NCBI GenBank assembly: GCA_032718475.1
Contig: JAUCBJ010000641.1
Coordinates: forward strand, 1 to 64,000
DNA length: 64,000 bases
Origin: Nemertoderma westbladi
Lineage: Eukaryota > Animalia > Xenacoelomorpha
Reading direction: 5' to 3'
A program made the position numbers and the translations under genes. The notes below the pieces were generated by a model. That model did not search any database, was not told the DNA's origin, and saw nothing but the letters and a program-made list of their open reading frames with translations. This document shows, piece after piece, positions 12,201 to 64,000 of this stretch; within the stretch, counting starts at the first letter, position 1, and every line of letters begins with the position of its first letter.

Positions 12201-12240
12201 TCCGACTCACATCCCTAGGACTACTACACTAATCCGACTC
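6217..12240. repeat. 32-bp satellite (CCGACTCACATCCCTAGG[A/C]CTACTACACTAAT), ~188 copies
   Basis: Period 32, C/A-rich on the + strand. Variant patterns recur at ~1.62-1.65 kb (e.g. 7101/8721, 7391/9011). Confidence 0.97.
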
Positions 12241-12449
12241 GTATAAGTCGATAAGGCTGGCTTATAGAGTATACCCTAGTTCGTTACAGAATAAATGAAA
12301 GAATGAAAAAATAAAAGAAAAAGCTTTAATATTAATATTGAAATAGAGTTCCATAAAATTTGAGGTGTCAAATATTATGTCGGATAACTCATCCGTTCTA
12401 AATTTACGTGAAACTTTATACATTTTTTATCACTAATATATATTTTTCA

Positions 12450-15900: not shown

Positions 15901-16555
15901 CAGGCGTTTAACAAATCTTGCCTTAATTATATCCTAGCAGGCGTTTAACAAATCTTGCATTAATTATATCCTAGCAGGCGTTTAACAAATCTTGCATTAA
16001 TTATATCCTAGCAGGCGTTTAACAAATCTTGCATTAATTATATCCTAGCAGGCGCTTAACAAATCATGCATTAATTATATCCTAGCAGGCGTTTAACAAA
16101 TCTTGCATTAATTATATCCTAGCAGGCGTTTAACAAATCTTGCATTAATTATATCCTAGCAGGCGTTTAACAAATCTTGCATTAATTATATCCTAGCAGG
16201 CGTTTAACAAATCTTGCCTTAATTATATCCTAGCAGGCGTTTAACAAATCTTGCATTATTTATATCCTAGCAGGCGTTTAACAAATCATGCATTAATTAT
16301 ATCCTAGCAGGCCTTTAACAAATCTTGCATTAATTATATCCTAGCAGGCGTTTAACAAATCTTGCATTAATTATATCCTAGCAGGCGTTTAACAAATCTT
16401 GCATTAATTATATCCTAGCAGGCGTTTAACAAATCTTGCATTAATTATATCCTAGCAGGCGTTTAACAAATCTTGCATTAATTATATCCTAGCAGGCGTT
16501 TAACAAATCTTGCATTAATTATATCCTAGCAGGCGTTTAACAAATCTTGCCTTAA
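12972..16555. repeat. 37-bp satellite (CCTAGCAGGCGTTTAACAAATCTTGC[A/C]TTAATTATAT), left block, ~97 copies
   Basis: Period 37 (CCTAG at 12973 and 13010), very homogeneous; ends at the TTAA insertion site. Confidence 0.98.
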
Positions 16556-16861
16556 GGGGGGGGTAGCATCCTTTTGGACTTGCTCCACGGTTTTGCTTAT
16601 AGCAAGGACAATTTTGATTTCTAGACCACATTATTTGGTCCAAGGCTCCTATAGATGTTGCTCTTCATGTTTCTGGAAAAAAATTTATTTTTAATTAAAA
16701 TGATTAAATTTTTAATCGAATTATTTACATTTTTAATTAAAATTAATTGAAACCCTAATGCTTTAGATCTACTTTCCATGGGAATGTAAGATTTGGTAAT
16801 AATGCTTTCAATAAGGTATAAATTGAAAGCTTTCAGCTCTGATTTTGAAAATTTCCAAAAA

Positions 16862-16880
16862 TGGCCACTAGGTGGCGCTA
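16862..16880 (+). promoter_or_regulatory. CTCF-like binding motif inside the transposon
   Basis: TGGCCACTAGGTGGCGCTA matches the consensus TGGCCACCAGGGGGCGCTA at 17/19 positions. Confidence 0.55.
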
Positions 16881-17520
16881 CAAATTTGCACATCAGTTGA
16901 ACCGATCTTTTATTGGGAAAAACAAGATTGTTTTCAAATAATTTGAAAATTCTGACCTGGAAGTTTTGTCGAGAAGTGCGCTGCTGACATCATATCCAAA
17001 ATTCAGATCAATAGCTTCAAAAATGACAGACTAGTAGGGTTTTGAAGAGAAAAAAAACCATTCTGAGATAAATGCCTTCAAAGTTCAAATGAAGAGATTT
17101 TTCAATATATTTTCGAAAGAATCACTTCTTTCGAAATGATTTCAACAGAATTTCCAACAAAAATATGCACAGGGGGGTTTTCGACACCGGGGAATAACAT
17201 GGCCAGGTTATTTTTTCAATCCGATGTCCGTGTGTCCGTCTGTCCATCTGTCTGTCTCACTGACTGTGACCAGTAGCATTGCAATTTAGCATGAATTCAG
17301 CTAAAAATATGAATAGATTTTCAGTAATGGAGAGAAGCATGGCAGGTTGTTTTTTAAATCCATGGGTTAGTTATGTGGATCTGCTCTAGTCTTTTTGTCA
17401 TTACAGACAGACAGACAGTCTGTCTGTCTGTCTGATATTTTGATCAATTATGATACACAGCTTGGCTGAATACAGTATAAAACAAAATAGCAAATAAACC
17501 ATCTATTTGGCAATCACAGT

Positions 17521-17526
17521 TTTATT
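17521..17526 (-). terminator. Putative poly(A) signal of the transposase gene
   Basis: AATAAA on the minus strand, 100 nt downstream of the stop codon. Confidence 0.45.
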
Positions 17527-17625
17527 CATTCTGAAAAATACTGTATAATGTATAGGCCTCTAATCCTAAGCCAAATATATAAACCCAAACACGATTTCAT
17601 AGTCTTGAGGAACCTACTAGTGTTC

Positions 17626-18924
17626 TTACATAGCATCCCCGAAGCCACCTGGGATATATGCTTGGTCATCACCGGCTAGTAGACCAGCCTTCTTAGACTT
17701 GCTACCTTTCCTGGAGTATTTGGCACGTTTCAACTTTCGAATCGAGCCAGCGATCCTTCTACTGTCACTCCTCTGAGCCAACACCGTGGCTGCCGATGTT
17801 TTTTCGATAGTCTGTTTGGACAACTTGCCGAGGACAAGGTTCCTAGCTGTAGCACCCTCATTGAAGGCAAGGACTGCAGCTGCAACTGCTAAAGATATGC
17901 GCTGTCTACCCCAAAACTTATGTTTGGGAGCTCTTGCCCAGATGAGGCTATTGAAGGATTCACTAACGTTCTGCGTATATCCGGGAACACACCGCCTGAG
18001 CAGGTTAATATCTGATAACCGTCTATACACAGGCAACAAAAGAGATAAGAATATTGGGTCCAAGTGGTAGTCTTTGTCTATGTGTTTCCCATCCTTTTTG
18101 TATGAACACCAGTTATTATCTGGGCAGAATTTATGGACATCTTCATCAGTTCCATGGCGTATCCCATGCCTAAACGATGCTAGAATGTTTCTCTTCATTG
18201 TCTGGACACACGCCGAAATTTCCACCTGGGTTCTAGCTGACCTGTCGATGGACGATCTAATGGCGTTGCCATAGTAACGGCTCAGTCTTTCTATAGTTGA
18301 TAGAGTCAGTCTATGCTTCGCACCACCAATAAACTTTCCATCTGCGAGTTTGCCCTTGTGTGAGTCCTTCAAATCGCGTAGAGCCTTTCCAAGTCTCTTC
18401 TTGACGTGGTTTACGCAGTCAATCTTGTTTACGCGTTTACACTGGACATCCCCAGTGTCATGCTTCGCCCAGATCGCCTTACCCGTGTCAGATTCATTGA
18501 AGAGAAGTTTCTCCTTATTTGATTTCTTGCTGTAAGTTTCGCAATCGTTACAAGATCCGTATATATCAGCAACGGCATTGTATGCCGTTGAATCTCCATC
18601 ACAGACTACAGATGTATAACTGAGTCCATGACTATCAGAGTCCTTTCCATCAACAGACTTCTGAAATAGTTCTATGGCTATGTCTGCTTCCATAGACCCG
18701 CTACTGCTTGAGTATCTGCCTGGACATTGCGGTATATGGTTTTCCATAAATGAAATATATGACTCTGAGTCTTTAGGATATGGGGCAAATTCACAAGCAT
18801 TGCAAATTTTATTTCTCATTGCGTAGTCTAGAATTTTTCCAGTTGCCATCCCAATGACTGCTCCCACCCCACTGTTTGAGGTATGCCCACGGGTACCCCA
18901 TGTGCCATCGAAAGAGACAGTGAC
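17626..18924 (-). CDS. Kolobok-type DDE transposase, exon 2 (432 aa + stop)
   Basis: Acceptor TTGTTTTAG|GTC at 18925/18924. Reads VTVSFDGTWGTRGHTSNSGVG...NKICNAC...SSGSMEAD...VCDGDS...DCVNHVKKRLG...HKFCPDNNWC...YTQNVSESFNSLIW...YIPGGF, uninterrupted. Confidence 0.88.
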   Translation of the reverse strand, partial: VTVSFDGTWGTRGHTSNSGVGAVIGMATGKILDYAMRNKICNACEFAPYPKDSESYISFMENHIPQCPGRYSSSSGSMEADIAIELFQKSVDGKDSDSHGLSYTSVVCDGDSTAYNAVADIYGSCNDCETYSKKSNKEKLLFNESDTGKAIWAKHDTGDVQCKRVNKIDCVNHVKKRLGKALRDLKDSHKGKLADGKFIGGAKHRLTLSTIERLSRYYGNAIRSSIDRSARTQVEISACVQTMKRNILASFRHGIRHGTDEDVHKFCPDNNWCSYKKDGKHIDKDYHLDPIFLSLLLPVYRRLSDINLLRRCVPGYTQNVSESFNSLIWARAPKHKFWGRQRISLAVAAAVLAFNEGATARNLVLGKLSKQTIEKTSAATVLAQRSDSRRIAGSIRKLKRAKYSRKGSKSKKAGLLAGDDQAYIPGGFGDAM

Positions 18925-19535
18925 CTAAAACAATATAATTAGTGAAAGTGAAATTTATTCTCAACAATAACAATAATAGTAACAACAATTCACAACTACA
19001 CATACCGGTAGCTCGGCAATAAAAATATTCAAAGTATTATTTAGTACGATAAAAGTAGTGTGTAGTATTTATTCAGTATATAAATAGGAGTATTTAGTGA
19101 AGTATATAGAACAGTACATGAGTATTTATGTGATGTTGTATTTATTTATATATAACTTACGATATTACTACCGGTACATACATTATATATTCATACTAGC
19201 TGATTAATACCCGTAGGCGTAGAGCCTAGGACAGTGTGCGTGTATGCAAAGATAAACAAACAAACACACACACAGACAACGACGACTTGCCACACAGCCT
19301 ATACCACTCAGAGTACTCAATTATGTATTCTGTTGAATTTTTAGCCCAATCTGACAGGGGGAAAATAGATCGCTGATGTGTAGATGGACAAACACACATA
19401 CACACACATTTTTAACCACCCTATGGTACCCCATGTCCGACAAATGGACAGAGACAGACATTGGCGGCTGAACCGAGAATTATAGATCTACCGGTATACA
19501 ATATATTATTATCCTACATACAGTACAGTACTTAC

Positions 19536-20177
19536 ATCTGAACCAACTTTGAGCTTCAACGCCTTTCGCGCTTCACTCATCTTCTCCTCTGCCAGATTAG
19601 ACACAACTGCGTTGATCTTATTGATGTTGAATGTCCATGTTGAATTTGCTAATGTGCACGGCATTTCCAAGCACTGACAGATAGTGTATAAGGTTTCTAT
19701 GCCGTTTCCAGTCTCACAAAGGCCATAGACCATTCGGCTATTCAAATCAGCAGAGTGCTGTTTATTGTAAACAGTATCATCTGTTCCATACTTTCCTTCA
19801 GCACACTGCAAAATATCGCTAAACTCACAATGTGAACACTGAAAATAAGCAACAGAGTCAATCCCGAGTGTAAGATGGGCCAACTGTTCGACCTTCAACT
19901 CTCCGGGGCACCCGCCGCTATTATGAGCACGTCCTACTAGGTCTGTGATATTCCGCATACTCATTATACGGTATCCAGTTGTACTGTTCGAGAATTCATT
20001 ACAGTTGTTCGTATTATCTCCTAACTTGTCAGTACTCGCTGTTATTATCGTCTTGTTTACTTCTTCCACTAATTCGACATTTGCGGACTCCACGGGATGG
20101 CGTGACAGGTACTGCGCCTTCTGTAGTTCAACCTGTCGGCTCTTAGTAAGCCTTGATAAAGCTTTCAATCTCGGCAT
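19536..20177 (-). CDS. Kolobok-type DDE transposase, exon 1 (214 aa)
   Basis: ATG at 20177 (MPRLKALSRL). Contains GYRIM, H..C..CxxC and LNSRMVYG...GNG motifs. Ends GAT|GTAAGT (phase 0) and joins exon 2 in frame across a 611-bp intron, giving 646 aa. Confidence 0.8.
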
Positions 20178-20755
20178 TGCAGCTCTCAAATGTGGCAACA
20201 CTAGGTACCGGTAGAACAACTGAATACAATTTGTATATAGCAAACCCCATGAATACTACAGTAGTTCAAATTTCCCGCCATGAAGAATAAGAGCTGGTAC
20301 GGTAGTATGTAGCGTTAGGTCAAAGTCGAGTTAGGTCCATTTCTTTATTTGCTAACTTTGGATCTATATCTGAATCTTCGGGTCAAAATTTAGATCCAGT
20401 GGCATTAGTATTGTAATGCCAATGTCTATCGATCGGGCCAGGCGGTGAATCCGCCAATGACCCAAATTTAGCAAACAAAGATACGGAACCTACCAGTACT
20501 TGGACCTAACGGTGCACAACCCAGGAGCTCCATACTGTATGTTGAATTTTTGTAAAGTCGAAAATTGTTTAAAAAATGCGGATCTTCTTCCAAACTCCAG
20601 TAATATAAATAGTGCTATCTCAATAACTAAGCAAAATTTTGTAAAACGGATTGCAGATTCGGGTTCCCCATAAAATTTTGGACAATAATCAATAAAAAAA
20701 AACGAAAATCTTTTTTTTTTCAAAAACGATGCTACCCCCCCCCCCCCCCCCCCCC

Positions 20756-42779: not shown

Positions 42780-43122
42780 TAGATCAATATTTCTTATAAT
42801 AACCACAATATGTGACAATATCGACGACAAACTTGTAACAAAAAATAACAAAAAGACAAAGACAGAGAAGACAAAAGACAATGACAAATTCTTCGAATAG
42901 GAAGAGTTAGGCAGGTTTTCTTTTATAAGTTAGGCATGTGTTAGGCAATAGAATAAGTAGTTCTTAAACAAGTAACAGGAATAATTAAAATACACGTAAC
43001 CGTGAGAACATATGGGTTGGGAATGGTCCGTATGTATTTATCCCAATAAGTAGAATCAACCAGACAGTTCGTTTCTATAACAAAGCAAGGTTCCTCGCAG
43101 TAGTAGACCAGATATGATGACG

Positions 43123-43461
43123 TCACCGACGTGATCCGGAAGCGTGATTGGTCGTTGACTCTTCCGACCTGCGATTGGCTGATGCATCTCCGCCTCCTCT
43201 ATGGACCGTGCTGTTTAACGGGCGGACAACCAGCGAGGCGGCAGCGTAACTCACGGAACTGTCACTGTTGTGTTTACACCTGCTAGACTGTTTGTACTTA
43301 AGGAATCGAAGGGTTATACACGAATGACCGTTGTGGTTACTCAACTCGTGTATAGCGTTTAGCAGCACCGAGATGGGATGGCGACCACAGATTGTGTTCG
43401 CGTATTGTTTTAGATAATCGTAAAAGCCATCGGCATCCAGTTGCTCAATCAGATCCATACC
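43123..43461 (-). CDS. MEMO1: Protein MEMO1, terminal coding exon (112 aa); upstream exons lie beyond the right edge
   Basis: Acceptor TTTCCGTTCTCCCAG|GGT ATG (phase 0). GMDLIEQLD...[22 protein letters not shown]...[10 protein letters not shown]...[11 protein letters not shown] carries the NTICGRHPI and DSSVSYAA signatures of MEMO1. Confidence 0.93.
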
Positions 43462-43944
43462 CTGGGAGAACGGAAAGTATTAGTTGGTTACTCCGGTTGG
43501 AAAATCTAATGTAGAGGGCCGAGTAAACCTCTTAAAACTGTATTGCAACGAAAAATAAACGCTATTTGAAGGAAAAACTTTTTATAATATTGTATAAAGT
43601 AGAATGTAATAATTCTCTAAGAATTAATAATAAATATTTATGTTAACATATTTTTACTCTTAAAATTGCCTTTCGATCCAGACCTTCACGTGACGTTTGA
43701 GGATTGCCATTTAAATCCAGCGTAGTATTAACAGCTGCTATCAGATAGCAGAAGTATCTGAGTATCTTATCAAAATATATTATATACCAGTAATTCAGAT
43801 TCGATTTTGGACTCTTTCAGAACATGCAGTAAGTAAACTTGTCGTGAACATATTTTTGGCAGCTGAGTATTAAATTAAAATTATTAAAAGAAAAAGTGAG
43901 TATTAATAACAAAGGTTATACAAAACATTGACTATACAAATTAT

Positions 43945-44068
43945 ACGGTGGATCGCCGGATTTTTCAACTATCCGGCCGGATAGCAGATTTTGCCCAAAA
44001 TCCGCCGCATATCCGGCCGGATCGGACAGTCGGGTATCCGGTGCACTAAATCCGGAATCTAGGCGGAA
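43945..44068. mobile_element. Probable DNA-transposon end fragment rich in ATCCGG motifs
   Basis: Clustered ATCCGG/CCGGAT subterminal-type motifs, including TATCCGGTGCAC; abuts the end of the 42-bp array. No TIR pair or TSD found. Confidence 0.4.
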
Positions 44069-47000
44069 ATCTATATGTTGTATACTCTGGTGTAAGTGAC
44101 TCACCATTCTATCTATATGTAGTATACTCTGGTGTAAGTGACTCACCATTCTATCTATTTGTTGTATATTCTGGTGTAAGTGACTCACCATTCTATCTAA
44201 ATGTTGTATACTCTGGTGTAAGTGACTCACCAATCTATTTATTTGTTGTATACTCTGGTGTAAGTGACTCACCATTCTATCTAAATGTTGTATACTCTGG
44301 TGTAAGTGACTCACCATTCTATCTAAATGTTGTATACTCTGGTGTAAGTGACTCACCATTCTATCCATATGTTGTATACTCTGGTGTAAGTGACTCACCA
44401 TTCTATCTATATGTTGTATACTCTGGTGTAAGTGACTCACCATTATATCTAAATGTTGTATACTCTGGTTTAAGTGACTCACCATTCTATCTATATGTTG
44501 TATATTCTGGTGTAAGTGACTCACCATTCTATCTATATGTTGTATACTCTGGTGTAAGTGATTCACCATTCTATCTATGTTGTATACTCTGGTGTAAGTG
44601 ACTCACCATTATATCTAAATGTTGTATACTCTGGTGTAAGTGACTCACCATTCTATCTAAATCTAAATGTTGTATACTCTGGTGTAAGTGACTCATCATT
44701 CTATCTATGTTGTATACTCTGGTGTAAGTGACTCACCATTCTATCTAAATCTAAATGTTGTATACTCTGGTGTAAGTGACTCACCATTCTATCTATGTTG
44801 TATACTCTGGTGTAAGTGACTCACCATTCTATCCATATGCTGTATACTCTGGTGTAAGTAACTCACCATTATATCTATATGTTGTATACTCTGGTGTAAG
44901 TGACTCACCATTATATCTATTTGTTGTATACTCTGGTGTAAGTGACTCACCATTATATCTAAATGTTGTATACTCTGGTGTAAGTGACTCACCATTCTAT
45001 CTAAATCTAAATGTTGTATACTCTGGTGTAAGTGACTCACCATTATATCTAAATGTTGTATACTCTGGTGCAAGTGACTCACCATTATATCTATTTGTTG
45101 TATACTCTGGTGTAAGTGACTCACCATTCTATCTATTTGTTGTATACTCTGGTGTAAGTGACTCACCATTATATCTAAATGTTGTATACTCTGGTGTAAG
45201 TGACTCACCATTATATCTATTTGTTGTATACTCTGGTGTAAGTGACTCACCATTCTATCTATTTGTAGTATACTCTGGTGTAAGTGACTCACCATTCTAT
45301 CTATGTTGTATACTCTGGTGTAAGTGACTCACCATTCTATCTATATGTTGTATACTCTGGTGTAAGTGACTCACCATTCTATATATATGTTGTATACTCT
45401 GGTGTAAGTGACTCACCATTATATCTATATGTTGTATACTCTGGTGTAAGTGACTCACCATTCTATCTATATGTTGTATACTCTGGTGTAAGTGACTCAC
45501 CACCATTCTATCTATATGTTGTATACTCTGGTGTAAGTGACTCACCATTATATCTAAATGTTGTATACTCTGGTGTAAGTGACTCACCATTCTATCTATA
45601 TGTTGTATATTCTGGTGTAAGTGACTCACCATTCTATCTATTTGTTGTATACTCTGGTGTAAGTGACTCACCATTATATCTAAATGTTGTATACTCTGGT
45701 GTAAGTGACTCACCATTCTATCTATATGTTGTATACTCTGGTGTAAGTGACTCACCATTCTATCTAAATCTAAATGTTGTATACTCTGGTGTAAGTGACT
45801 CACCATTCTATCTATATGTTGTTTATTCTGGTGGATGACTCACCATTCTATCTATGTTGTATACTCTGGTGTAAGTGACTCACCATTATATCTAAATGTT
45901 GTATACTCTGGTGTAAGTGACTCACCATTCTATCTAAATCTAAATGTTGTATACTCTGGTGTAAGTGACTCACCATTCTATCTATGTTGTATACTCTGGT
46001 GTAAGTGACTCACCATTCTATCCATATGTTGTATACTCTGGTGTAAGTAACTCACCATTATATCTATATGTTGTATACTCTGGTGTAAGTGACTCACCAT
46101 TATATCTATTTGTTGTATACTCTGGTGTAAGTGACTCACCATTATATCTAAATGTTGTATACTCTGGTGTAAGTGACTCACCATTCTATCTAAATCTAAA
46201 TGTTGTATACTCTGGTGTAAGTGACTCACCATTATATCTAAATGTTGTATACTCTGGTGTAAGTAACTCACCACACCATTATATCTATTTGTTGTATACT
46301 CTGGTGTAAGTGACTCACCATTCTATATATATATGTTGTATACTCTGGTGTAAGTGACTCACCATTCTATCTATATGTTGTATACTCTGGTGTAAGTGAC
46401 TCACCATTCTATATATATGTTGTATACTCTGGTGTAAGTGACTCACCATTCTATCTATATGTTGTATACTCTGGTGTAAGTGACTCACCATTCTATCTAT
46501 ATGTTGTATACTCTGGTGTAAGTGACTCACCATTCTATCTATTTGTTGTATACTCTGGTGTAAGTGACTCACCATTCTATCTATTTGTTGTATACTCTGG
46601 TGTAAGTGACTCACCATTCTATCTATATGTTGTATACTCTGGTGTAAGTGACTCACCATTCTATCTATGTTGTATACTCTGGTGTAAGTGACTCACCATT
46701 CTATCTATATGTTGTATACTCTGGTGTAAGTGACTCACCATTATATATATATGTTGTATACTCTGGTGTAAGTGACTCACCATTCTATCTATTTGTTGTA
46801 TACTCTGGTGTAAGTGATTCACCATTCTATCTATATGTTGTATACTCTGGTGTAAGTGACTCACCATTATATCTATTTGTTGTATACTCTGGTGTAAGTG
46901 ACTCACCATTCTAACTATATGTAGTATACTCTGGTGTAAGTGACTCACCATTATATCTATTTGTTGTATACTCTGGTGTAAGTGACGCACCATTCTATCT

Positions 47001-50000
47001 ATATGTTGTATACTCTGGTGTAAGTGACTCACCATTATATCTATATGTTGTATACTCTGGTGTAAGTGACTCACCATTCCATCTATATGTTGTATACTCT
47101 GGTGTAAGTGACTCACCATTATATCTATTTGTTGTATACTCTGGTGTAAGTGACTCACCATTCCATCTATATGTTGTATACTCTGGTGTAAGTGACTCAC
47201 CATTCTATCTATATGTAATATACTCTGGTGTAAGTGACTCACCATTCTATCTATGTTGTATACTCTGGTGTAAGTGACTCACCATTCTATCTATATGTTG
47301 TATACTCTGGTGTAAGTGACTCACCATTCTATCTAAATCTAAATGTTGTATACTCTGGTGTAAGTGACTCACCATTCTATCTAAATGTTGTATACTCTGG
47401 TGTAAGTGACTCACCATTCTATCTATATGTTGTATACTCTGGTGTAAGTGACTCACCATTCTATCTATATGTAATATACTCTGGTGTAAGTGACTCACCA
47501 TTCTATCTATGTTGTATACTCTGGTGTAAGTGACTCACCATTCTATCTATATGTTGTATACTCTGGTGTAAGTGACTCACCATTCTATCTAAATCTAAAT
47601 GTTGTATACTCTGGTGTAAGTGACTCACCATTATATCTAAATGTTGTATACTCTGGTGTAAGTGACTCACCATTCTATCTAAATCTAAATGTTGTATACT
47701 CTGGTGTAAGTGACTCACCATTATATCTAAATGTTGTATACTCTGGTGCAAGTGACTCACCATTATATCTATTTGTTGTATACTCTGGTGTAAGTGACTC
47801 ACCATTCTATCTATTTGTTGTATACTCTGGTGTAAGTGACTCACCATTATATCTAAATGTTGTATACTCTGGTGTAAGTGACTCACCATTATATCTATTT
47901 GTTGTATACTCTGGTGTAAGTGACTCACCATTCTATCTATTTGTAGTATACTCTGGTGTAAGTGACTCACCATTCTATCTATGTTGTATACTCTGGTGTA
48001 AGTGACTCACCATTCTATCTATATGTTGTATACTCTGGTGTAAGTGACTCACCATTCTATATATATGTTGTATACTCTGGTGTAAGTGACTCACCATTAT
48101 ATCTATATGTTGTATACTCTGGTGTAAGTGACTCACCATTCTATCTATATGTTGTATACTCTGGTGTAAGTGACTCACCACCATTCTATCTATATGTTGT
48201 ATACTCTGGTGTAAGTGACTCACCATTATATCTAAATGTTGTATACTCTGGTGTAAGTGACTCACCATTCTATCTATATGTTGTATATTCTGGTGTAAGT
48301 GACTCACCATTCTATCTATTTGTTGTATACTCTGGTGTAAGTGACTCACCATTATATCTAAATGTTGTATACTCTGGTGTAAGTGACTCACCATTCTATC
48401 TATATGTTGTATACTCTGGTGTAAGTGACTCACCATTCTATCTAAATCTAAATGTTGTATACTCTGGTGTAAGTGACTCACCATTCTATCTATATGTTGT
48501 TTATTCTGGTGGATGACTCACCATTCTATCTATGTTGTATACTCTGGTGTAAGTGACTCACCATTATATCTAAATGTTGTATACTCTGGTGTAAGTGACT
48601 CACCATTCTATCTAAATCTAAATGTTGTATACTCTGGTGTAAGTGACTCACCATTCTATCTATGTTGTATACTCTGGTGTAAGTGACTCACCATTCTATC
48701 CATATGTTGTATACTCTGGTGTAAGTAACTCACCATTATATCTATATGTTGTATACTCTGGTGTAAGTGACTCACCATTATATCTATTTGTTGTATACTC
48801 TGGTGTAAGTGACTCACCATTATATCTAAATGTTGTATACTCTGGTGTAAGTGACTCACCATTCTATCTAAATCTAAATGTTGTATACTCTGGTGTAAGT
48901 GACTCACCATTATATCTAAATGTTGTATACTCTGGTGTAAGTAACTCACCACACCATTATATCTATTTGTTGTATACTCTGGTGTAAGTGACTCACCATT
49001 CTATATATATATGTTGTATACTCTGGTGTAAGTGACTCACCATTCTATCTATATGTTGTATACTCTGGTGTAAGTGACTCACCATTCTATATATATGTTG
49101 TATACTCTGGTGTAAGTGACTCACCATTCTATCTATATGTTGTATACTCTGGTGTAAGTGACTCACCATTCTATCTATATGTTGTATACTCTGGTGTAAG
49201 TGACTCACCATTCTATCTATTTGTTGTATACTCTGGTGTAAGTGACTCACCATTCTATCTATTTGTTGTATACTCTGGTGTAAGTGACTCACCATTCTAT
49301 CTATATGTTGTATACTCTGGTGTAAGTGACTCACCATTCTATCTATGTTGTATACTCTGGTGTAAGTGACTCACCATTCTATCTATATGTTGTATACTCT
49401 GGTGTAAGTGACTCACCATTATATATATATGTTGTATACTCTGGTGTAAGTGACTCACCATTCTATCTATTTGTTGTATACTCTGGTGTAAGTGATTCAC
49501 CATTCTATCTATATGTTGTATACTCTGGTGTAAGTGACTCACCATTATATCTATTTGTTGTATACTCTGGTGTAAGTGACTCACCATTCTAACTATATGT
49601 AGTATACTCTGGTGTAAGTGACTCACCATTATATCTATTTGTTGTATACTCTGGTGTAAGTGACGCACCATTCTATCTATATGTTGTATACTCTGGTGTA
49701 AGTGACTCACCATTATATCTATATGTTGTATACTCTGGTGTAAGTGACTCACCATTCCATCTATATGTTGTATACTCTGGTGTAAGTGACTCACCATTAT
49801 ATCTATTTGTTGTATACTCTGGTGTAAGTGACTCACCATTCCATCTATATGTTGTATACTCTGGTGTAAGTGACTCACCATTCTATCTATATGTAATATA
49901 CTCTGGTGTAAGTGACTCACCATTCTATCTATGTTGTATACTCTGGTGTAAGTGACTCACCATTCTATCTATATGTTGTATACTCTGGTGTAAGTGACTC

Positions 50001-53000
50001 ACCATTCTATCTAAATCTAAATGTTGTATACTCTGGTGTAAGTGACTCACCATTCTATCTAAATGTTGTATACTCTGGTGTAAGTGACTCACCATTCTAT
50101 CTATATGTTGTATACTCTGGTGTAAGTGACTCACCATTCTATCTATATGTTGTATACTCTGGTGTAAGTGACTCACCATTCTATCTATATGTTGTATACT
50201 CTGGTGTAAGTGACTCACTATTCTATCTATATGTTGTATACTCTGGTGTAAGTGACTCACCATTCTATCTATATGTTGTATACTCTGGTGTAAGTGAATC
50301 ACCATTCTATCTATATGCTGTCTACTCTGGTGTAAGTGACTCACCATTCTATCTATTTGTTGTATACTCTGGTGTAAGTGACTCACCATTCTATCTAAAT
50401 CTAAATGTTGTATACTCTGGTGTAAGTGACTCACCATTCTATCTATGTTGTATACTCTGGTGTAAGTGACTCACCATTATATCTAAATGTTGTATACTCT
50501 GGTGTAAGTGACTCACCATTCTATCTATATGTTGTATACTCTGGTGTAAGTGACTCACCATTCCATCTAAATGTTGTATACTCTGGTGTAAGTGACTCAC
50601 CATTCTATCTATGTGTTGTATACAAGTGACTCACCATTCTATCTATATGTTGTATACTCTGGTGTAAGTGACTCACCATTCTATCTATTTGTTGTATACT
50701 CTGGTGTAAGTGACTCACCATTCTATCTATTTGTTGTATACTCTGGTGTAAGTGACTCACCATTCTATATATATATTGTATACTCTGGTGTAAGTGACTC
50801 ACCATTCTATCTATGTTGTATACTCTGGTGTAAGTGACTCACCATTCTATCCATATGTTGTATACTCTGGTGTAAGTAACTCACCATTATATCTATATGT
50901 TGTATACTCTGGTGTAAGTGACTCACCATTATATCTATTTGTTGTATACTCTGGTGTAAGTGACTCACCATTATATCTAAATGTTGTATACTCTGGTGTA
51001 AGTGACTCACCATTCTATCTAAATCTAAATGTTGTATACTCTGGTGTAAGTGACTCACCATTATATCTAAATGTTGTATACTCTGGTGTAAGTGACTCAC
51101 CATTCTATCTATTTGTTGTATACTCTGGTGTAAGTGACTCACCATTCTATATATATGTTGTATACTCTGGTGTAAGTGACTCACCATTCTATCTATATGT
51201 TGTATACTCTGGTGTAAGTGACTCACCATTCTATCTATTTGTTGTATACTCTGGTGTAAGAGACTCACCATTATATCTAAATGTTTTATACTCTGGTGTA
51301 AGTGACTCACCATTCTATCTATTTGTTGTATACTCTGGTGTAAATGACTCACCATTCTATCTATTTGTTGTATACTCTGGTGTAAGTGACTCACCATTCT
51401 ATATGTTGTATACTCTGGTGTAAGTGACTCACTATTCTATCTATATGTTGTATACTCTGGTGTAAGTGACTCACCATTCTATATGTTGTATACTCTGGTG
51501 TAAGTGACTCACCATTCTATCTATTTGTTGCATACTCTGGTGTAAGTGACTCACCATTATATCTAAATGTTGTATACTCTGGTGTAAGTGACTCACCATT
51601 CTATCTATATGTTGTATACTCTGGTGTAAGTGACTCACCATTCTATCTATATGTTGTATACTCTGGTGTAAGTGACTCACCATTATATATAAATGTTGTA
51701 TACTCTGGTGTAAGTGACTCACCATTCTATCTATTTGTTGTATACTCTGGTGTAAGTGACTCACCATTCTATCTATATGTTGTATACTCTGGTGTAAGTG
51801 ACTCACCATTCTATCTATATGTTGTATACTCTGGTGTAAGTGACTCACCATTATATCTATTTGTTGTATACTCTGGTGTAAGTAACTCACCATTATATCT
51901 ATATGTTGTATACTCTGGTGTAAGTGACTCACCATTATATCTATTTGTTGTATACACTGGTGTAAGTGACTCACCATTATATCTATTTGTTGTATACTCT
52001 GGTGTAAGTGACTCACCATTCTATCTATTTGTTGTATACTCTGGTGTAAGTGACTCACCATTCTATCTATTTATGTATACTCTGGTGTAAGTGACTCACC
52101 ATTCTATCTATATGTTGTATACTCTGGTGTAAGTGACTCACCATTCTATCTATTTGTTGTATACTCTGGTGTAAGTGACTCACCATTCTATCTATATGTA
52201 GTATACTCTGGTGTAAGTGACTCACCATTCTATCTATATGTTGTATACTCTGGTGTAAGTGACTCACCATTCTATCTATATGTTGTATACTCTGGTGTAA
52301 GTGACTCACCATTCTATCTATTTGTTGTATACTCTGGTGTAAGTGACTCACCATTCTATCGATATGTTGTATACTCTGGTGTAAGTGACTCACCATTCTA
52401 TCTATATGTTGTATACTCTGGTGTAAGTGACTCACCATTCTATCTATATGTTGTATACTCTGGTGTAAGTGACTCACCATTCTATCTATTTGTTGTATAC
52501 TCTGGTGTAAGTGACTCACCATTCTATCGATATGTTGTATACTCTGGTGTAAGTGACTCACCATTCTATCTATATATAGTATACTCTAGTGTAAGTGACT
52601 CACCATTCTATCTATGTTGTATACTCTGGTGTAAGTGACTCACCATTCTATCTATTTGTTGTATACTCTGGTGTAAGTGACTCACCATTCCTAGATGTTG
52701 TATACTCTGGTGTAAGTGACTCACCATTCTATCTATGTTGTATACTCTGGTGTAAGTGACTCACCATTCTATCTATATGTTGTATACTCTGGTGTAAGTG
52801 ACTCACCATTATATCTATATGTTGTATACTCTGGTGTAAGTGACTCACCATTCTATCTATTTGTTGTATACTCTGGTGTAAGTGATTCACCATTCTATCT
52901 ATATGTTGTATACTCTGGTGTAAGTGACTCACCATTATATCTATTTGTTGTATACTCTGGTGTAAGTGACTCACCATTCTATCTATATGTAGTATACTCT

Positions 53001-56000
53001 GGTGTAAGTGACTCACCATTATATCTATTTGATGTATACTCTGGTGTAAGTGACGCACCATTCTATCTATATGTTGTATACTCTGGTGTAAGTGACTCAC
53101 CATTCTATCTATATGTTGTATACTCTGGTGTAAGTGACTCACCATTCTATCTATTTGTTGTATACTCTGGTGTAAGTGACTCACCATTCCATCTATATGT
53201 TGTATACTCTGGTGTAAGTGACTCACCATTCTATCTATATGTAATATACTCTGGTGTAAGTGACTCACCATTCTATCTATGTTGTATACTCTGGTGTAAG
53301 TGACTCACCATTCTATCTATATGTTGTATACTCTGGTGTAAGTGACTCACCATTCTATCTATGTTGTATACTCTGGTGTAAGTGACTCACCATTCTATCT
53401 ATGTTGTATACTCTGGTGTAAGTGACTCACCATTCTATCTATTTGTTGTATACTCTGGTGTAAGTGACTCACCATTCTATCTAGATGTTGTATACTCTGG
53501 TGTAAGTGACTCACCATTCTATCTATGTTGTATACTCTGGTGTAAGTGACTCACCATTCTATCTATATGTTGTATACTCTGGTGTAAGTGACTCACCATT
53601 ATATCTATATGTTGTATACTCTGGTGTAAGTGACTCACCATTCTATCTATTTGTTGTATACTCTGGTGTAAGTGATTCACCATTCTATCTATATGTTGTA
53701 TACTCTGGTGTAAGTGACTCACCATTATATCTATTTGTTGTATACTCTGGTGTAAGTGACTCACCATTCTATCTATATGTAGTATACTCTGGTGTAAGTG
53801 ACTCACCATTATATCTATTTGTTGTATACTCTGGTGTAAGTGACGCACCATTCTATCTATATTTTGTATACTCTGGTGTAAGTGACTCACCATTATATCT
53901 ATATGTTGTATACTCTGGTGTAAGTGACTCACCATTCTATCTATATGTTGTATACTCTGGTGTAAGTGACTCACCATTCTATCTATTTGTTGTATACTCT
54001 GGTGTAAGTGACTCACCATTCCATCTATATGTTGTATACTCTGGTGTAAGTGACTCACCATTCTATCTATATGTAATATACTCTGGTGTAAGTGACTCAC
54101 CATTCTATCTATGTTGTATACTCTGGTGTAAGTGACTCACCATTCTATCTATATGTTGTATACCCTGGTGTAAGTGACTCACCATTCTATCTATATGTTG
54201 TATACTCTGGTGTAAGTGACTCACCATTCTATCTATTTGTTGTATACTCTGGTGTAAGTGACTCACCATTCTATCTATTTGTTGTATACTCTGGTGTAAG
54301 TGACTCACCATTCTATATATATGTTGTATACTCTGGTGTAAGTGACTCACCAATCTATCTATGTTGTATACTCTGGTGTAAGTGACTCACCATTCTATCC
54401 ATATGTTGTATACTCTGGTGTAAGTAACTCACCATTATATCTATATGTTGTATACTCTGGTGTAAGTGACTCACCATTATATCTATTTGTTGTATACTCT
54501 GGTGTAAGTGACTCACCATTATATCTAAATGTTGTATACTCTGGTGTAAGTGACTCACCATTCTATCTAAATCTAAATGTTGTATACTCTGGTGTAAGTG
54601 ACTCACCATTATATCTAAATGTTGTATACTCTGGTGTAAGTGACTCACCATTCTATCTATTTGTTGTATACTCTGGTGTAAGTGACTCACCATTCTATAT
54701 ATATGTTGTATACTCTGGTGTAAGTGACTCACCATTCTATCTATATGTTGTATACTCTGGTGTAAGTGACTCACCATTCTATCTATTTGTTGTATTATCT
54801 GGTGTAAGAGACTCACCATTCTATCTAGATGTTGTATACTCTGGTGTAAGTGACTCACCATTCTATCTATGTTGTATACTCTGGTGTAAGTGACTCACCA
54901 TTCTATCTATATGTTGTATACTCTGGTGTAAGTGACTCACCATTATATCTATATGTTGTATACTCTGGTGTAAGTGACTCACCATTCTATCTATTTGTTG
55001 TATACTCTGGTGTAAGTGATTCACCATTCTATCTATATGTTGTATACTCTGGTGTAAGTGACTCACCATTATATCTATTTGTTGTATACTCTGGTGTAAG
55101 TGACTCACCATTCTATCTATATGTAGTATACTCTGGTGTAAGTGACTCACCATTATATCTATTTGTTGTATACTCTGGTGTAAGTGACGCACCATTCTAT
55201 CTATATGTTGTATACTCTGGTGTAAGTGACTCACCATTATATCTATATGTTGTATACTCTGGTGTAAGTGACTCACCATTCTATCTATATGTTGTATACT
55301 CTGGTGTAAGTGACTCACCATTCTATCTATTTGTTGTATACTCTGGTGTAAGTGACTCACCATTCCATCTATATGTTGTATACTCTGGTGTAAGTGACTC
55401 ACCATTCTATCTATATGTAATATACTCTGGTGTAAGTGACTCACCATTCTATCTATGTTGTATACTCTGGTGTAAGTGACTCACCATTCTATCTATATGT
55501 TGTATACCCTGGTGTAAGTGACTCACCATTCTATCTATATGTTGTATACTCTGGTGTAAGTGACTCACCATTCTATCTATTTGTTGTATACTCTGGTGTA
55601 AGTGACTCACCATTCTATCTATTTGTTGTATACTCTGGTGTAAGTGACTCACCATTCTATCTATATGTTGTATACTCTGGTGTAAGTGACTCACCATTCT
55701 ATCTATGTTGTATACTCTGGTGTAAGTGACTCACCATTCTATCCATATGTTGTATACTCTGGTGTAAGTGACTCACCATTATATCTATATGTTGTATACT
55801 CTGGTGTAAGTGACTCACCATTATATCTATTTGTTGTATACTCTGGTGTAAGTGACTCACCATTATATCTAAATGTTGTATACTCTGGTGTAAGTGACTC
55901 ACCATTCTATCTAAATCTAAATGTTGTATACTCTGGTGTAAGTGACTCACCATTATATCTAAATGTTGTATACTCTGGTGTAAGTGACTCACCATTCTAT

Positions 56001-59000
56001 CTATTTGTTGTATACTCTGGTGTAAGTGACTCACCATTCTATATATATGTTGTATACTCTGGTGTAAGTGACTCACCATTCTATCTATATGTTGTATACT
56101 CTGGTGTAAGTGACTCACCATTCTATCTATTTGTTGTATTATCTGGTGTAAGAGACTCACCATTATATCTAAATGTTTTATACTCTGGTGTAAGTGACTC
56201 ACCATTCTATCTATTTGTTGTATACTCTGGTGTAAGTGACTCACCATTCTATCTATTTGTTGTATACTCTGGTGTAAGTGACTCACCATTCTATATGTTG
56301 TATACTCTGGTGTAAGTGACTCACCATTCTATCTATATGTTGTATACTCTGGTGTAAGTGACTCACCATTATATCTATATGTTGTATACTCTGGTGTAAG
56401 TGACTCACCATTCTATCTATTTGTTGTATACTCTGGTGTAAGTGATTCACCATTCTATCTATATGTTGTATACTCTGGTGTAAGTGACTCACCATTATAT
56501 CTATTTGTTGTATACTCTGGTGTAAGTGACTCACCATTCTATCTATATGTAGTATACTCTGGTGTAAGTGACTCACCATTATATCTATTTGTTGTATACT
56601 CTGGTGTAAGTGACGCACCATTCTATCTATATGTTGTATACTCTGGTGTAAGTGACTCACCATTCTATCCATATGCTGTATACTCTGGTGTAAGTGACTC
56701 ACCATTCTATCTATATGTTGTATACTCTGGTGTAAGTGACTCACCATTCTATCTATTTGTTGTATACTCTGGTGTAAGTGACTCACCATTCCATCTATAT
56801 GTTGTATACTCTGGTGTAAGTGACTCACCATTCTATCTATATGTAATATACTCTGGTGTAAGTGACTCACCATTCTATCTATGTTGTATACTCTGGTGTA
56901 AGTGACTCACCATTCTATCTATATGTTGTATACTCTGGTGTAAGTGACTCACCATTCTATCTAAATCTAAATGTTGTATACTCTGGTGTAAGTGACTCAC
57001 CATTCTATCTATGTTGTATACTCTGGTGTAAGTGACTCACCATTCTATCTATATGTTGTATACTCTGGTGTAAGTGAATCACCATTCTATCTATATGTTG
57101 TATACTCTGGTGTAAGTGACTCACCATTCTATCTATTTGTTGTATACTCTGGTGTAAGTGACTCACCATTCTATCTAAATCTAAATGTTGTATACTCTGG
57201 TGTAAGTGACTCACCATTCTATCTATGTTGTATACTCTGGTGTAAGTGACTCACCATTCTATCTATATGTTGTATACTCTGGTGTAAGTGACTCACCATT
57301 CTATCTATTTGTTGTATACTCTGGTGTAAGTGACTCACCATTCTATCTATTTGTTGTATACTCTGGTGTAAGTGACTCACCATTCTATCTATTTGTTGTA
57401 TACTCTGGTGTAAGTGACTCACCATTCTATATATATGTTGTATACTCTGGTGTAAGTGACTCACCATTCTATCTATATGTTGTATACTCTGGTGTAAGTG
57501 ACTCACCATTCTATCTATTTGTTGTATACTCTGGTGTAAGAGACTCACCATTATATCTAAATGTTTTATACTCTGGTGTAAGTGACTCACCATTCTATCT
57601 ATTTGTTGTATACTCTGGTGTAAGTGACTCACCATTCTATCTATTTGTTGTATACTCTGGTGTAAGTGACTCACCATTCTATATGTTGTATACTCTGGTG
57701 TAAGTGACTCACCATTCTATCTATATGTTGTATACTCTGGTGTAAGTGACTCACCATTATATCTATATGTTGTATACTCTGGTGTAAGTGACTCACCATT
57801 CTATCTATTTGTTGTATACTCTGGTGTAAGTGATTCACCATTCTATCTATATGTTGTATACTCTGGTGTAAGTGACTCACCATTATATCTATTTGTTGTA
57901 TACTCTGGTGTAAGTGACTCACCATTCTATCTATATGTAGTATACTCTGGTGTAAGTGACTCACCATTATATCTATTTGTTGTATACTCTGGTGTAAGTG
58001 ACGCACCATTCTATCTATATGTTGTATACTCTGGTGTAAGTGACTCACCATTCTATCCATATGCTGTATACTCTGGTGTAAGTGACTCACCATTCTATCT
58101 ATATGTTGTATACTCTGGTGTAAGTGACTCACCATTCTATCTATTTGTTGTATACTCTGGTGTAAGTGACTCACCATTCCATCTATATGTTGTATACTCT
58201 GGTGTAAGTGACTCACCATTCTATCTATATGTAATATACTCTGGTGTAAGTGACTCACCATTCTATCTATGTTGTATACTCTGGTGTAAGTGACTCACCA
58301 TTCTATCTATATGTTGTATACTCTGGTGTAAGTGACTCACCATTCTATCTAAATCTAAATGTTGTATACTCTGGTGTAAGTGACTCACCATTCTATCTAT
58401 GTTGTATACTCTGGTGTAAGTGACTCACCATTCTATCTATATGTTGTATACTCTGGTGTAAGTGAATCACCATTCTATCTATATGTTGTATACTCTGGTG
58501 TAAGTGACTCACCATTCTATCTATTTGTTGTATACTCTGGTGTAAGTGACTCACCATTCTATCTAAATCTAAATGTTGTATACTCTGGTGTAAGTGACTC
58601 ACCATTCTATCTATGTTGTATACTCTGGTGTAAGTGACTCACCATTCTATCTATATGTTGTATACTCTGGTGTAAGTGACTCACCATTATTTCTAAATGT
58701 TGTATACTCTGGTGTAAGTGACTCACCATTCTATCTATATGTTGTATACTCTGGTGTAAGTGACTCACCATTCTATCTATATGTTGTATACTCTGGTGTA
58801 AGTGACTCACCATTCTATCTATATGTTGTATACTCTGGTGTAAGTGACTCACCATTCTATCTATATGTTGTATACTCTGGTGTAAGTGACTCACCATTCT
58901 ATCTATATGTTGTATACTCTGGTGTAAGTGACTCACCATTCTATCTATATGTTGTATACTCTGGTGTAAGTGACTCACCATTCTATCTATATGTTGTATA

Positions 59001-62000
59001 CTCTGGTGTAAATGACTCACCATTCTATCTATATGTTGTATACTCTGGTGTAAGTGACTCACCATTCCATCTAAATGTTGTATACTCTGGTGTAAGTGAC
59101 TCACCATTCTATCTATATGTAATATACTCTGGTGTAAGTGACTCACCATTCTATCTATGTTGTATACTCTGGTGTAAGTGACTCACCATTCTATCTATAT
59201 GTTGTATACTCTGGTGTAAGTGACTCACCATTCTATCTATTTGTTGTATACTCTGGTGTAAGTGACTCACCATTCCATCTATATGTTGTATACTCTGGTG
59301 TAAGTGACTCACCATTCTATCTATATGTAATATACTCTGGTGTAAGTGACTCACCATTCTATCTATGTTGTATACTCTGGTGTAAGTGACTCACCATTCT
59401 ATCTAAATCTAAATGTTGTATACTCTGGTGTAAGTGACTCACCATTCTATCTATGTTGTATACTCTGGTGTAAGTGACTCACCATTCTATCTATATGTTG
59501 TATACTCTGGTGTAAGTGAATCACCATTCTATCTATATGTTGTATACTCTGGTGTAAGTGACTCACCATTCTATCTATTTGTTGTATACTCTGGTGTAAG
59601 TGACTCACCATTCTATCTAAATCTAAATGTTGTATACTCTGGTGTAAGTGACTCACCATTCTATCTATGTTGTATACTCTGGTGTAAGTGACTCACCATT
59701 CTATCTATATGTTGTATACTCTGGTGTAAGTGACTCACCATTATATCTAAATGTTGTATACTCTGGTGTAAGTGACTCACCATTCTATCTATATGTTGTA
59801 TACTCTGGTGTAAGTGACTCACCATTCTATCTATATGTTGTATACTCTGGTGTAAGTGACTCACCATTCTATCTATATGTTGTATACTCTGGTGTAAGTG
59901 ACTCACCATTCTATCTATATGTTGTATACTCTGGTGTAAGTGACTCACCATTCTATCTATATGTTGTATACTCTGGTGTAAGTGACTCACCATTCTATCT
60001 ATATGTTGTATACTCTGGTGTAAGTGACTCACCATTCTATCTATATGTTGTATACTCTGGTGTAAATGACTCACCATTCTATCTATATGTTGTATACTCT
60101 GGTGTAAGTGACTCACCATTCCATCTAAATGTTGTATACTCTGGTGTAAGTGACTCACCATTCTATCTATATGTAATATACTCTGGTGTAAGTGACTCAC
60201 CATTCTATCTATGTTGTATACTCTGGTGTAAGTGACTCACCATTCTATCTATATGTTGTATACTCTGGTGTAAGTGACTCACCATTCTATCTATTTGTTG
60301 TATACTCTGGTGTAAGTGACTCACCATTCCATCTATATGTTGTATACTCTGGTGTAAGTGACTCACCATTCTATCTATATGTAATATACTCTGGTGTAAG
60401 TGACTCACCATTCTATCTATGTTGTATACTCTGGTGTAAGTGACTCACCATTCTATCTATATGTTGTATACTCTGGTGTAAGTGACTCACCATTCTATCT
60501 ATATGTTGTATACTCTGGTGTAAGTGATTCACCATTCTATCTATATGTTGTATACTCTCGTGTAAGTGACTCACCATTCCATCTATATGTTGTATACTCT
60601 GGTGTAAGTGACTCACCATTCTATCTATATGTAATATACTCTGGTGTAAGTGACTCACCATTCTATCTATGTAATATACTCTGGTGTAAGTGACTCACCA
60701 TTCTATCTATATGTTGTATACTCTGGTGTAAGTGACTCACCATTCTATCTATATGTTGTATACTCTGGTGTAAGTGAATCACCATTCTATCTATATGTTG
60801 TATACTCTGGTGTAAGTGACTCACCATTCTATCTATATGTTGTATACTCTGGTGTAAGTGACTCACCAGTCTATCTATATGTTGTATACTCTGGTGTAAG
60901 TGACTCACCATTCCATCTATATGTTTTATACTCTGGTGTAAGTGACTCACCATTCTATCTATGTGTTGTATACTCTGGTGTAAGTGACTCACCATTCTAT
61001 CTATATGTTGTATACTCTGGTGTAAGTGACTCACCATTCTATCTATATGTTGTATACTCTGGTGTAAGTGACTCACCATTCCATCTATATGTTTTATACT
61101 CTGGTGTAAGTGACTCACCATTCTATCTATATGTTGTATACTCTGGTGTAAGTGACTCACCATTCTATCTATATGTTGTATACTCTGGTGTAAGTGACTC
61201 ACCATTCTATCTATATGTTGTATACTCTGGTGTAAGTGACTCACCATTCTACCTATGTTGTATACTCTGGTGTAAGTGACTCACCATTCTATCTATATGT
61301 TGTATACTCTGGTGTAAGTGACTCACCTTTCTATCTATATGTTGTATACTGATACTCTGGTGGAAGTGACTCGCCATTCCATCTATATGTTGTATACTCT
61401 GGTGTAAGTGACTCACCATTCCATCTATATGTTGTATACTCTGGTGTAAGTGACTCACCATTCCATCTATATGTTGTATACTCTGGTGTAAGTGACTCAC
61501 CATTCTATCTATATGTTGTATACTCTGGTGTAAGTGACTCACCATTCCATCTATATGTTGTATACTCTGGTGTAAGTGACTCACCATTCTATCTATATGT
61601 AATATACTCTGGTGTAAGTGACTCACCATTCTATCTATGTTGTATACTCTGGTGTAAGTGACTCACCATTCTATCTATATGTTGTATACTCTGGTGTAAG
61701 TGACTCACCATTCTTTCTAAATGTTGTATACTCTGGTGTAAGTGACTCACCATTCTATCTATGTTGTATACTCTGGTGTAAGTGACTCACCATTCTATCT
61801 ATATGTTGTATACTCTGGTGTAAGTGAATCACCATTCTATCTATATGTTGTATACTCTGGTGTAAGTTTCTCACCATTCTATCTATGTTGTATACTCTGG
61901 TGTAAGTGACTCACCATTCTATCTATATGTAGTATACTCTGGTGTAAGTGACTCACCATTCTATCTATATGTTGTATACTCTGGTGTAAGTGACTCACCA

Positions 62001-64000
62001 TTCTATCTATATGTTGTATACTCTGGTGTAAGTGACTCACCATTCTATCTATGTTGTATACTCTGGTGTAAGTGACTCACCATTATATCTATATGTTGTA
62101 TACTCTGGTGTAAGTGACTCACCATTATATCTATATGTTGTATACTCTGGTGTAAGTGACTCACCATTCTATCTATATGTTGTATTCTCTGGTGTAAGTG
62201 ACTCACCATTCTATCTATATGTTGTATTCTCTGGTGTAAGTGACTCACCATTCTATCTATTTGTTGTATACTCTGGTGTAAGTGACTCACCATTCTATCT
62301 AAATCTAATGTTGTATACTCTGGTGTAAGTGACTCACCATTCTATCTATGTTGTATACTCTGGTGTAAGTGACTCACCATTCTATCTATATGTTGTATAC
62401 TCTGGTGTAAGTGACTCACCATTATATCTAAATGTTGTATACTCTGGTGTAAGTGACTCACCATTCTATCTATATGTTGTATACTCTGGTGTAAGTGACT
62501 CACCATTCTATCTATATGTTGTATACTCTGGTGTAAGTGACTCACCATTCTATCTATATGTTGTATACTCTGGTGTAAGTGACTCACCATTCTATCTATA
62601 TGTTGTATACTCTGGTGTAAGTGACTCACCATTCTATCTATATGTTGTATACTCTGGTGTAAGTGACTCACCATTCTATCTATATGTTGTATACTCTGGT
62701 GTAAGTGACTCACCATTCTATCTATATGTTGTATACTCTGGTGTAAGTGACTCACCATTCTATCTATATGTTGTATACTCTGGTGTAAGTGACTCACCAT
62801 TCTATCTAAATGTTGTATACTCTGGTGTAAGTGACTCACCATTCTATCTATATGTTGTATACTCTGGTGTAAGTGACTCACCATTATATCTATATGTTGT
62901 ATACTCTGGTGTAAGTGACTCACCATTCTATCTATATGTTGTATACTCTGGTGTAAGTGACTCACCATTCTATCTATATGTTGTATACTCTGGTGTAAGT
63001 GACTCACCATTCTATCTATTTGTTGTATACTCTGGTGTAAGTGACTCACCATTCTATCTATTTGTTGTATACTCTGGTGTAAGTGACTCACCATTCTATC
63101 TATATGTTGTATACTCTGGTGTAAGTGACTCACCATTCTATCTATATGTTGTATACTCTGGTGTAAGTGACTCACCATTCTATCTATATGTTGTATACTC
63201 TGGTGTAAGTGACTCACCATTCTATCTATATGTTGTATACTCTGGTGTAAGTGACTCACCATTCTATCTATATGTTGTATACTCTGGTGTAAGTGACTCA
63301 CCATTCTATCTATATGTTGTATACTCTGGTGTAAGTGACTCACCATTCTATCTATATGTTGTATACTCTGGTGTAAGTGACTCACCATTCTATCTATATG
63401 TTGTATACTCTGGTGTAAGTGACTCACCATTCTATCTATATGTTGTATACTCTGGTGTAAGTGACTCACCATTCTATCTATATGTTGTATACTCTGGTGT
63501 AAGTGACTCACCATTCTATCTATATGTTGTATACTCTGGTGTAAGTGACTCACCATTCTATCTATATGTTGTATACTCTGGTGTAAGTGACTCACCATTC
63601 TATCTATATGTTGTATACTCTGGTGTAAGTGACTCACCATTCTATCTATATGTTGTATACTCTGGTGTAAGTGACTCACCATTCTATCTATATGTTGTAT
63701 ACTCTGGTGTAAGTGACTCACCATTCTATCTATATGTTGTATACTCTGGTGTAAGTGACTCACCATTCTATCTATATGTTGTATACTCTGGTGTAAGTGA
63801 CTCACCATTCTATCTATATGTTGTATACTCTGGTGTAAGTGACTCACCATTCTATCTATATGTTGTATACTCTGGTGTAAGTGACTCACCATTCTATCTA
63901 TATGTTGTATACTCTGGTGTAAGTGACTCACCATTCTATCTATATGTTGTATACTCTGGTGTAAGTGACTCACCATTCTATCTATATGTTGTATACTCTG
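44069..64000 (-). repeat. 42-bp satellite in the last MEMO1 intron, ~475 copies within the window, derived from an exon end plus splice donor
   Basis: Gene-sense unit is CAC CAG AGT ATA CAA CAT ATA GAT AGA ATG|GTGAGT CAC TTA. Variant units of 40 and 48 bp occur, and a block is duplicated at a 2678-bp offset. Runs off the window. Confidence 0.97.

Follow-up and report, generated by a model that had tools for sequence, protein, structure and literature searches.

In the last MEMO1 intron of Nemertoderma westbladi, a tandem array apparently derived from the end of an exon plus the donor that follows it

The DNA considered here, the 'window', consists of positions 1 to 64,000 of contig JAUCBJ010000641.1 of Nemertoderma westbladi (Xenacoelomorpha; assembly GCA_032718475.1), and towards its right end it carries, on the minus strand, the end of the gene MEMO1. 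Within the last intron of that gene is a 42-bp satellite, each unit of which resembles the end of a MEMO1 exon together with the 5' splice site, or 'donor', which follows it. An earlier note, made from the sequence alone, had described this array and had supposed that the gene must choose one donor, splice stepwise, or else produce a ladder of repeat-containing isoforms. We consider it very likely that an exon end plus its donor was tandemly amplified inside a probably old intron, and that the spliced RNA which has been seen uses one authentic donor, located outside of the window, and drops the array, most likely by first-donor choice. The features involved, all on the minus strand, are as follows, with 'gene-upstream' referring to higher coordinates and with X3 and X5 being sequencing runs described below:

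42817..43122, minus strand: 3' untranslated sequence present in the spliced contigs, as far as 42817 in X3 and 42857 in X5
43123..43461, minus strand: last MEMO1 coding exon, 112 amino acids plus stop, the first 79 residues aligning to human MEMO1
43462..44068, minus strand: 607 nt of unique sequence forming the 3' part of the intron; a dispersed repeat lies around 43790-44030, and the AG acceptor is pyrimidine-rich, with CTAAT at -22
44069..64000, minus strand: tandem array of 42-bp units within the last intron of MEMO1, each unit a 30-nt exon-end copy plus 12 nt that open with donor GTGAGT; continues past the window edge
44189..44218, minus strand: exon part, with Leu codon, of the edge unit, to which the spliced contigs' exon end aligns with two differing letters
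62345..64000, minus strand: gene-upstream stretch in which the array is at its most uniform: 38 stop-free in-frame units giving 552 open codons, the first 21 of the units being identical

The last coding exon opens in phase 0 with GMDLIEQLD, as the earlier note had it, following a pyrimidine-rich AG, and matches residues 216-292 of the human MEMO1 chain (E 1.3e-21) as well as the Pfam family Memo. Past the human MEMO1 end there are about 33 additional, low-complexity C-terminal residues (43123-43225, minus strand).

Tandem Repeats Finder gives for 44069-64000 a period of 42, 473.5 copies and 93% matches, in keeping with the claim of a satellite of at least 20 kb with approximately 475 tandem donors. 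Cutting at a fixed anchor yields 471 whole units, of which 387 are 42 bp long, 44 are 40 bp, 24 are 48 bp, and 16 are of other lengths. The layout that had been proposed, i.e., 30 nt encoding HQSIQH[I/L]DRM followed by 12 nt, with the donor as ATG|GTGAGT, holds for most of the array, the motif being in its expected place in 434 of these units; on the array's minus strand GTGAGT occurs 448 times, directly preceded by ATG in 438 cases, and intact donors within the window number 446. The most frequent unit peptide is HQSIQHIDRM plus VSHL (127/471). The unit had been described also as 14 codons without a stop, which is true of 413 units and fails for 58, these having a frame break or a stop, with the first such break in unit 39 as counted from the right end. 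The copies are arranged head to tail, in gene orientation, 5' of the acceptor at 43462, and are skipped in the spliced join. They are varied as well, with 70 distinct spacing-based types and a strongest lag of 63 units, i.e., a higher-order period, and their uniformity falls along the array, from 34 identical units among 47 in the gene-upstream tenth to 5 among 48 in the last tenth. Distinct variant letters number 7 across the 9 donor positions vs. 33 across the 30 exon positions of the unit, and neither these per-position counts nor the 446 intact donors show any erosion of copied donors by selection.

As a separate matter, the unit is partly palindromic around its donor, and the plus strand of 44069-64000 likewise carries 459 GT(A/G)AGT hexamers. 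The 551-amino-acid repeat frame matches 121 Pfam families, mostly coiled-coil, which are dismissed as repeat artefacts.

Sequence from the locus is found in five runs (X1 to X5) from three studies, and among the 8 runs listed none that carries it is on record as RNA. Runs X3 and X5, labelled 'DNA?', are read here as RNA because they contain a spliced joint which X1 and X4, as intron-bearing runs, lack. That joint, located with the edge unit included in the reference, spans 43460-44188, has CT..AC ends (GT..AG on the gene strand), and is found at a depth of 58 in X3, 6533 in X5, and 0 in both X1 and X4. Contigs from X3 and X5 depart from the genome at the acceptor and lack intron coverage, whereas those from X2 and X4 (X3's sample) traverse the intron.

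The exon end found in X3 and X5 has 2 other letters in 31 as compared with the edge unit and then leaves the array. Upstream of the 30-nt exon end the X3 codons, translated by hand, are T-Y-H-D-A-T-R-G-H-I, which is in register with MEMO1 orthologues, these having at the matching positions Gly at -13 in 74/102 and Ile at -11 in 97/102. The X3 contig is 1445 nt long and has 771 nt ahead of the exon end, roughly what some 209 codons and a short leader would take up. Two motifs that distinguish the exon end in the transcript are both missing from the window, and among the array units the transcript's letters occur in 0/471 at position 9, 1/471 at position 12, and 0/472 at the preceding letter. 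The last exon, furthermore, differs between contigs and window by 0-1 substitutions and has a DNA depth equal to that of the unique intron, which together argue against a second gene copy as the transcript source. The main mRNA uses a single donor outside of the window and retains no unit. The option of one chosen donor is in this way the one that X3 and X5, from two studies, bear out, as both use a single exon end unlike all units in the window. In an unspliced X1 contig, this upstream flank of the exon is likewise seen beside a unit (the other side of the contig being outside of the display), which would agree with an array that begins at the exon.

Among four X5 records and one X3 record, none joins 43461 to an array-type exon end or covers a unit's intron part; contigs, however, show presence rather than absence, and no evidential weight is given to this. 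The X5 exon contig does stop 9 letters past the join (its other arm being outside of the display), but with the common types of unit the branch would come a letter sooner or a letter later, and this stop is not read as use of an array donor.

As to where the unit came from, a profile was made of the residues preceding the junction in 102 orthologues, each 250-340 residues long, taken from 120 listed of 157 homologue matches (the best of the matches listed being at 67%, and the animal's own MEMO1 protein not being one of them). The unit's 10 exon-part residues score 23.0 bits on this profile, with an orthologue median of 27.1, while 4000 shuffled units, each given the best of 84 registers, reach at most 12.4 bits (0/4000 at 23.0). 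The VSHL part, by contrast, misfits the orthologues, in which position -11 is Ile in 97/102 and Leu in 0/102, and this misfit is what divides the unit into 30 nt of exon and 12 nt of intron. The exon part matches 28 of 30 letters of the transcript's exon end, with GTGAGT next. On this sequence evidence the unit is judged to have come from amplification of the end of a MEMO1 exon along with the adjoining donor. The earlier note's equating of the unit peptide with those MEMO1 residues which precede the junction, and its suggestion that the exon/intron junction itself was tandemly amplified, both gain support from the orthologue alignment and the match to the transcript.

It might be supposed instead that the resemblance of the 42-mer to MEMO1, or the size of the array, misleads, the 42-mer belonging to a satellite family dispersed in the genome or having been over-expanded in assembly. 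Tandem array does constitute 81% of the window, and the right end of the MEMO1 array is very uniform, as would be seen with a collapsed or polished assembly. Weighing against this are the 28 letters out of 30 shared with the transcript's exon end. The unit, too, is very deep in two DNA runs, X1 and X4, from different studies, in which the depth of array words exceeds that of the flank by a factor of about a thousand (contig depth, however, not being copy number). The unique flanks displayed at array units are the MEMO1 exon and last intron only (7 loose-end rows being outside of the display), and the units are diverse and ordered in higher-order repeats rather than uniform throughout. We consider this alternative to be very improbable. 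Exact matches to the unit among metagenome contigs number 0, which for an animal sequence carries little weight.

Stepwise removal of the intron would employ CAG sites internal to the unit, along with the donors, as waypoints or as 24-nt in-frame micro-exons. A CAG does sit 24 nt before the donor in each unit, such that a frame-keeping micro-exon can be drawn on paper, and UBC is spliced at a tandem array of dual sites (PMC10809524). The donors of the MEMO1 array, though, are ATG|GT (as ATG|GTGAGT in 434/471 units) rather than AG|GT, the internal AGs have at most 8/14 pyrimidines upstream vs. 13/14 for the real acceptor, and the mature join is clean in the spliced contigs. This option of the earlier note thus finds little footing in the sequence and is rated as highly unlikely. 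The same donor context and weak pyrimidine tracts disagree with a UBC-type recursive or dual-specific splice-site array, in which AG|GT sites with a pyrimidine tract serve as acceptor and donor alike.

A further alternative is that the nearest copied donors are used, leakily or under regulation, so as to yield at a relevant level MEMO1 isoforms lengthened by one 14-residue repeat or several. The 38 gene-upstream units within the window are all in frame and stop-free, as compared with 58 breaks in 471 overall; the copied donors are uneroded, as noted; and human CBS employs two pseudo-donors (PMC1557585). On the other hand, spliced contigs from both studies display the unique exon end and no unit; the clean run of 38 is explained by recent expansion of one unit, i.e., the 34 of 47 identical units in the first tenth; and 408 of the 446 donors sit behind a premature stop, given that the unseen part of the array keeps frame, leaving an open frame from the 38 gene-upstream donors only. 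We view such isoforms as decidedly unlikely. The ladder envisaged by the earlier note accordingly could have an open product for just those 38 in-window donors, and it is not seen in the contigs. A more elaborate version, in which regulated low-level use of frame-keeping copies gives a ladder of 14-residue-repeat MEMO1 proteins invisible to nonsense-mediated decay, and in which, in addition, donors repeatedly seed multi-kb satellites in this genome, appears improbable.

Turning to history, the intron itself is likely old, as based on sequence comparison. Among 80 MEMO1 loci kept from metagenome contigs, most of them without a break in the match, an intron at the matching junction is seen in two, L063 (62 nt, ATG|GTGAGA ... 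CAG|GGC) and L077 (GTGAGT ... CAG|GGT), both on eukaryote contigs. Because the two share position and phase 0, the intron is likely to have been old, with the array growing inside of it. This L063/L077 intron, along with the 607 nt of unique intron tail, speaks against intron gain via tandem duplication of a proto-splice site.

The array might then have arisen as follows. A 42-bp piece spanning the exon/intron boundary would have been duplicated first, and the duplicate then expanded and reshuffled, presumably via slippage and unequal exchange, giving rise to the 40- and 48-bp variants as well as to the 63-unit higher-order repeat. The real exon would have escaped homogenization, as two of its third-codon positions are unlike those of the array and a Leu is retained in it at the site that is Ile in the majority of units. 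This Leu of the real exon end is Leu in 91/102 orthologues and Ile in 1/102, while among the 387 42-bp units Leu is found in 43 vs. Ile in 331, with Leu-type units commoner at the far edge (16/48) than in the gene-upstream tenth (3/47). Such a distribution fits an ancestral Leu unit that was overwritten by a younger variant, with both real exon and far edge lying outside of homogenization.

As for why the copied donors are silent, first-site choice in the 5'-to-3' direction may be responsible, as suggested by the human gene F7, perhaps aided by exon definition and by co-transcriptional commitment. Nonsense-mediated decay might clear products of distant-donor use, but it cannot explain the silence of the first 38 donors because those keep frame. 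Donor masking by RNA structure was considered and set aside: a small hairpin over the donor is possible, but its opening cost does not stand out from chance, since with three different span limits 36, 57 and 126 out of 300 shuffled units cost as much to open or more, and a z of -1.89 comes from a statistic which ignores tandem structure. In all likelihood the array itself serves no function.

Several points weigh against the view that a single authentic donor is chosen as the first in its row. The mechanism is borrowed from mammalian F7 and applies to the worm by analogy only. CBS and one other human gene use two pseudo-donors beside the authentic one, making some leakage plausible (PMC1557585). 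The real exon and the start of the array are beyond the window, and it is there that whether the array abuts the exon, or whether the donor used is first in the row, must rest. The RNA evidence, lastly, consists of two assembled contigs from runs labelled 'DNA?', and contigs drop rare forms.

The remainder of the window holds other repeats and one further gene. Downstream of MEMO1, at 12972-16555 and 20756-42516, is a 37-bp satellite of about 685 copies with 97-98% identity, in which the donor hexamer is absent from both strands. It is interrupted at 16556-20755 by a 4.2-kb DNA transposon with a Mutator-like transposase (PF20700) over two frames, a likely intron, G/C-tailed inverted ends, and TTAA on both sides; this anatomy is reminiscent of Sola3 elements. 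A short frame is located near 12680-12935. On the minus strand, at 6217-12240 and 12241-12290, there is a 32-bp array having 171 GT(A/G)AGT sites, bordered on its upstream side by an exon-like stretch some 65 nt long together with an AG and a pyrimidine tract. This array is possibly a second donor-seeded one, upstream of RPL12, going by its sequence. Rfam, as searched over 1-44200, the 32-bp array included, gave 0 matches. RPL12 is encoded at 4712-5209 (minus strand) in an uninterrupted coding frame, is at most 81% identical to single-domain relatives, the top named ones among which are echinoderms, matches no record exactly, and has a donor-like site upstream of it near 5428. A broken non-LTR retroelement, with an endonuclease domain match and, by eye, reverse-transcriptase-like sequence, occupies 1-2250 (minus strand).

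With regard to known systems, the MEMO1 array is likely an exon-boundary tandem repeat, of the so-called 'mirage' or F7 type, that is real and unusually large but ordinary in kind. That is, an exon end and splice signal have been copied, the copies are head to tail in the adjoining intron, and the main mRNA is spliced at the authentic donor. The novelty implied by the earlier note finds no support: F7, CBS, LMNB2, PDGF and lancelet genes have been described as carrying repeats of an exon boundary in which the copied donors stay silent. The array reveals neither a new mechanism nor a new protein. Variable repeats at human exon-intron boundaries have been surveyed as well (PMC2812944). What differs is the copy number, approximately 20 or more times that of the published exon-boundary cases compared, and a limited literature search, supplements not covered, found no exon-boundary repeat with hundreds of copies.

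The closest comparison is with the 37-bp variable number tandem repeat of human F7 intron 7, which spans the exon/intron boundary and reiterates the donor, with the authentic site used; in mutation tests extra units leave that choice unchanged, and loss of the first site results in splicing at the second (PMC1557585). F7 has 5-9 copies, CBS intron 13 has 15-20, LMNB2 10-15, and PDGF intron 4 16-18, according to the same source. As with these minisatellites, the MEMO1 unit spans the boundary, repeats the donor within the intron, and leaves mature RNA to be made from the authentic site. In contrast to their 5-20 copies, however, the MEMO1 array spans 20 kb or more and has no fewer than 446 donors intact; exon sequence makes up most of its unit (30/42 nt, vs. 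4/37 for F7), the unit length is divisible by three, and there are letter differences between the copies and the real exon end. First-donor choice would thereby be extended from rows of 5-20 copies to one of several hundred, and as a natural test the array is cleaner than F7: its nearest copies keep frame, and decay of bad transcripts therefore cannot be hiding them. Two fixed letter differences, in addition, allow any read to be assigned to the real or to a copied donor.

Lancelet 'mirage' minisatellites, found in Adh3, troponin C, the globins BflGb6 and BflGb9, and PGBD5 (PMC3087553, PMC3902484), are alike in being tandem boundary copies that keep splice signals, permit normal splicing, and have unhomogenized edges; units in Adh3 range from 10 to 72 bp (PMC3087553), within which 42 bp falls. 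BflGb6, the edges of which are exempt from homogenization, has 3-6 units (PMC3087553), unlike the hundreds of units plus higher-order structure seen here. In UBC, random use of a tandem array of dual-specific AGGT sites varies the number of monomers (PMC10809524); MEMO1 shares with it a tandem series of splice sites that keeps step with a coding repeat, but its sites are ATG|GT, and no unit is kept in the RNA that has been seen. With the satellite-filled, gigantic introns of Drosophila Y genes (PMC11207136), what is shared is a large intron spliced from a working gene, with co-transcriptional splicing a plausible common aid; those introns are far larger, and an exon-boundary origin of their repeats is not stated in the portion of that paper drawn upon. 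The MEMO1 array, for its part, documents the birth of a satellite from a known 42-bp origin.

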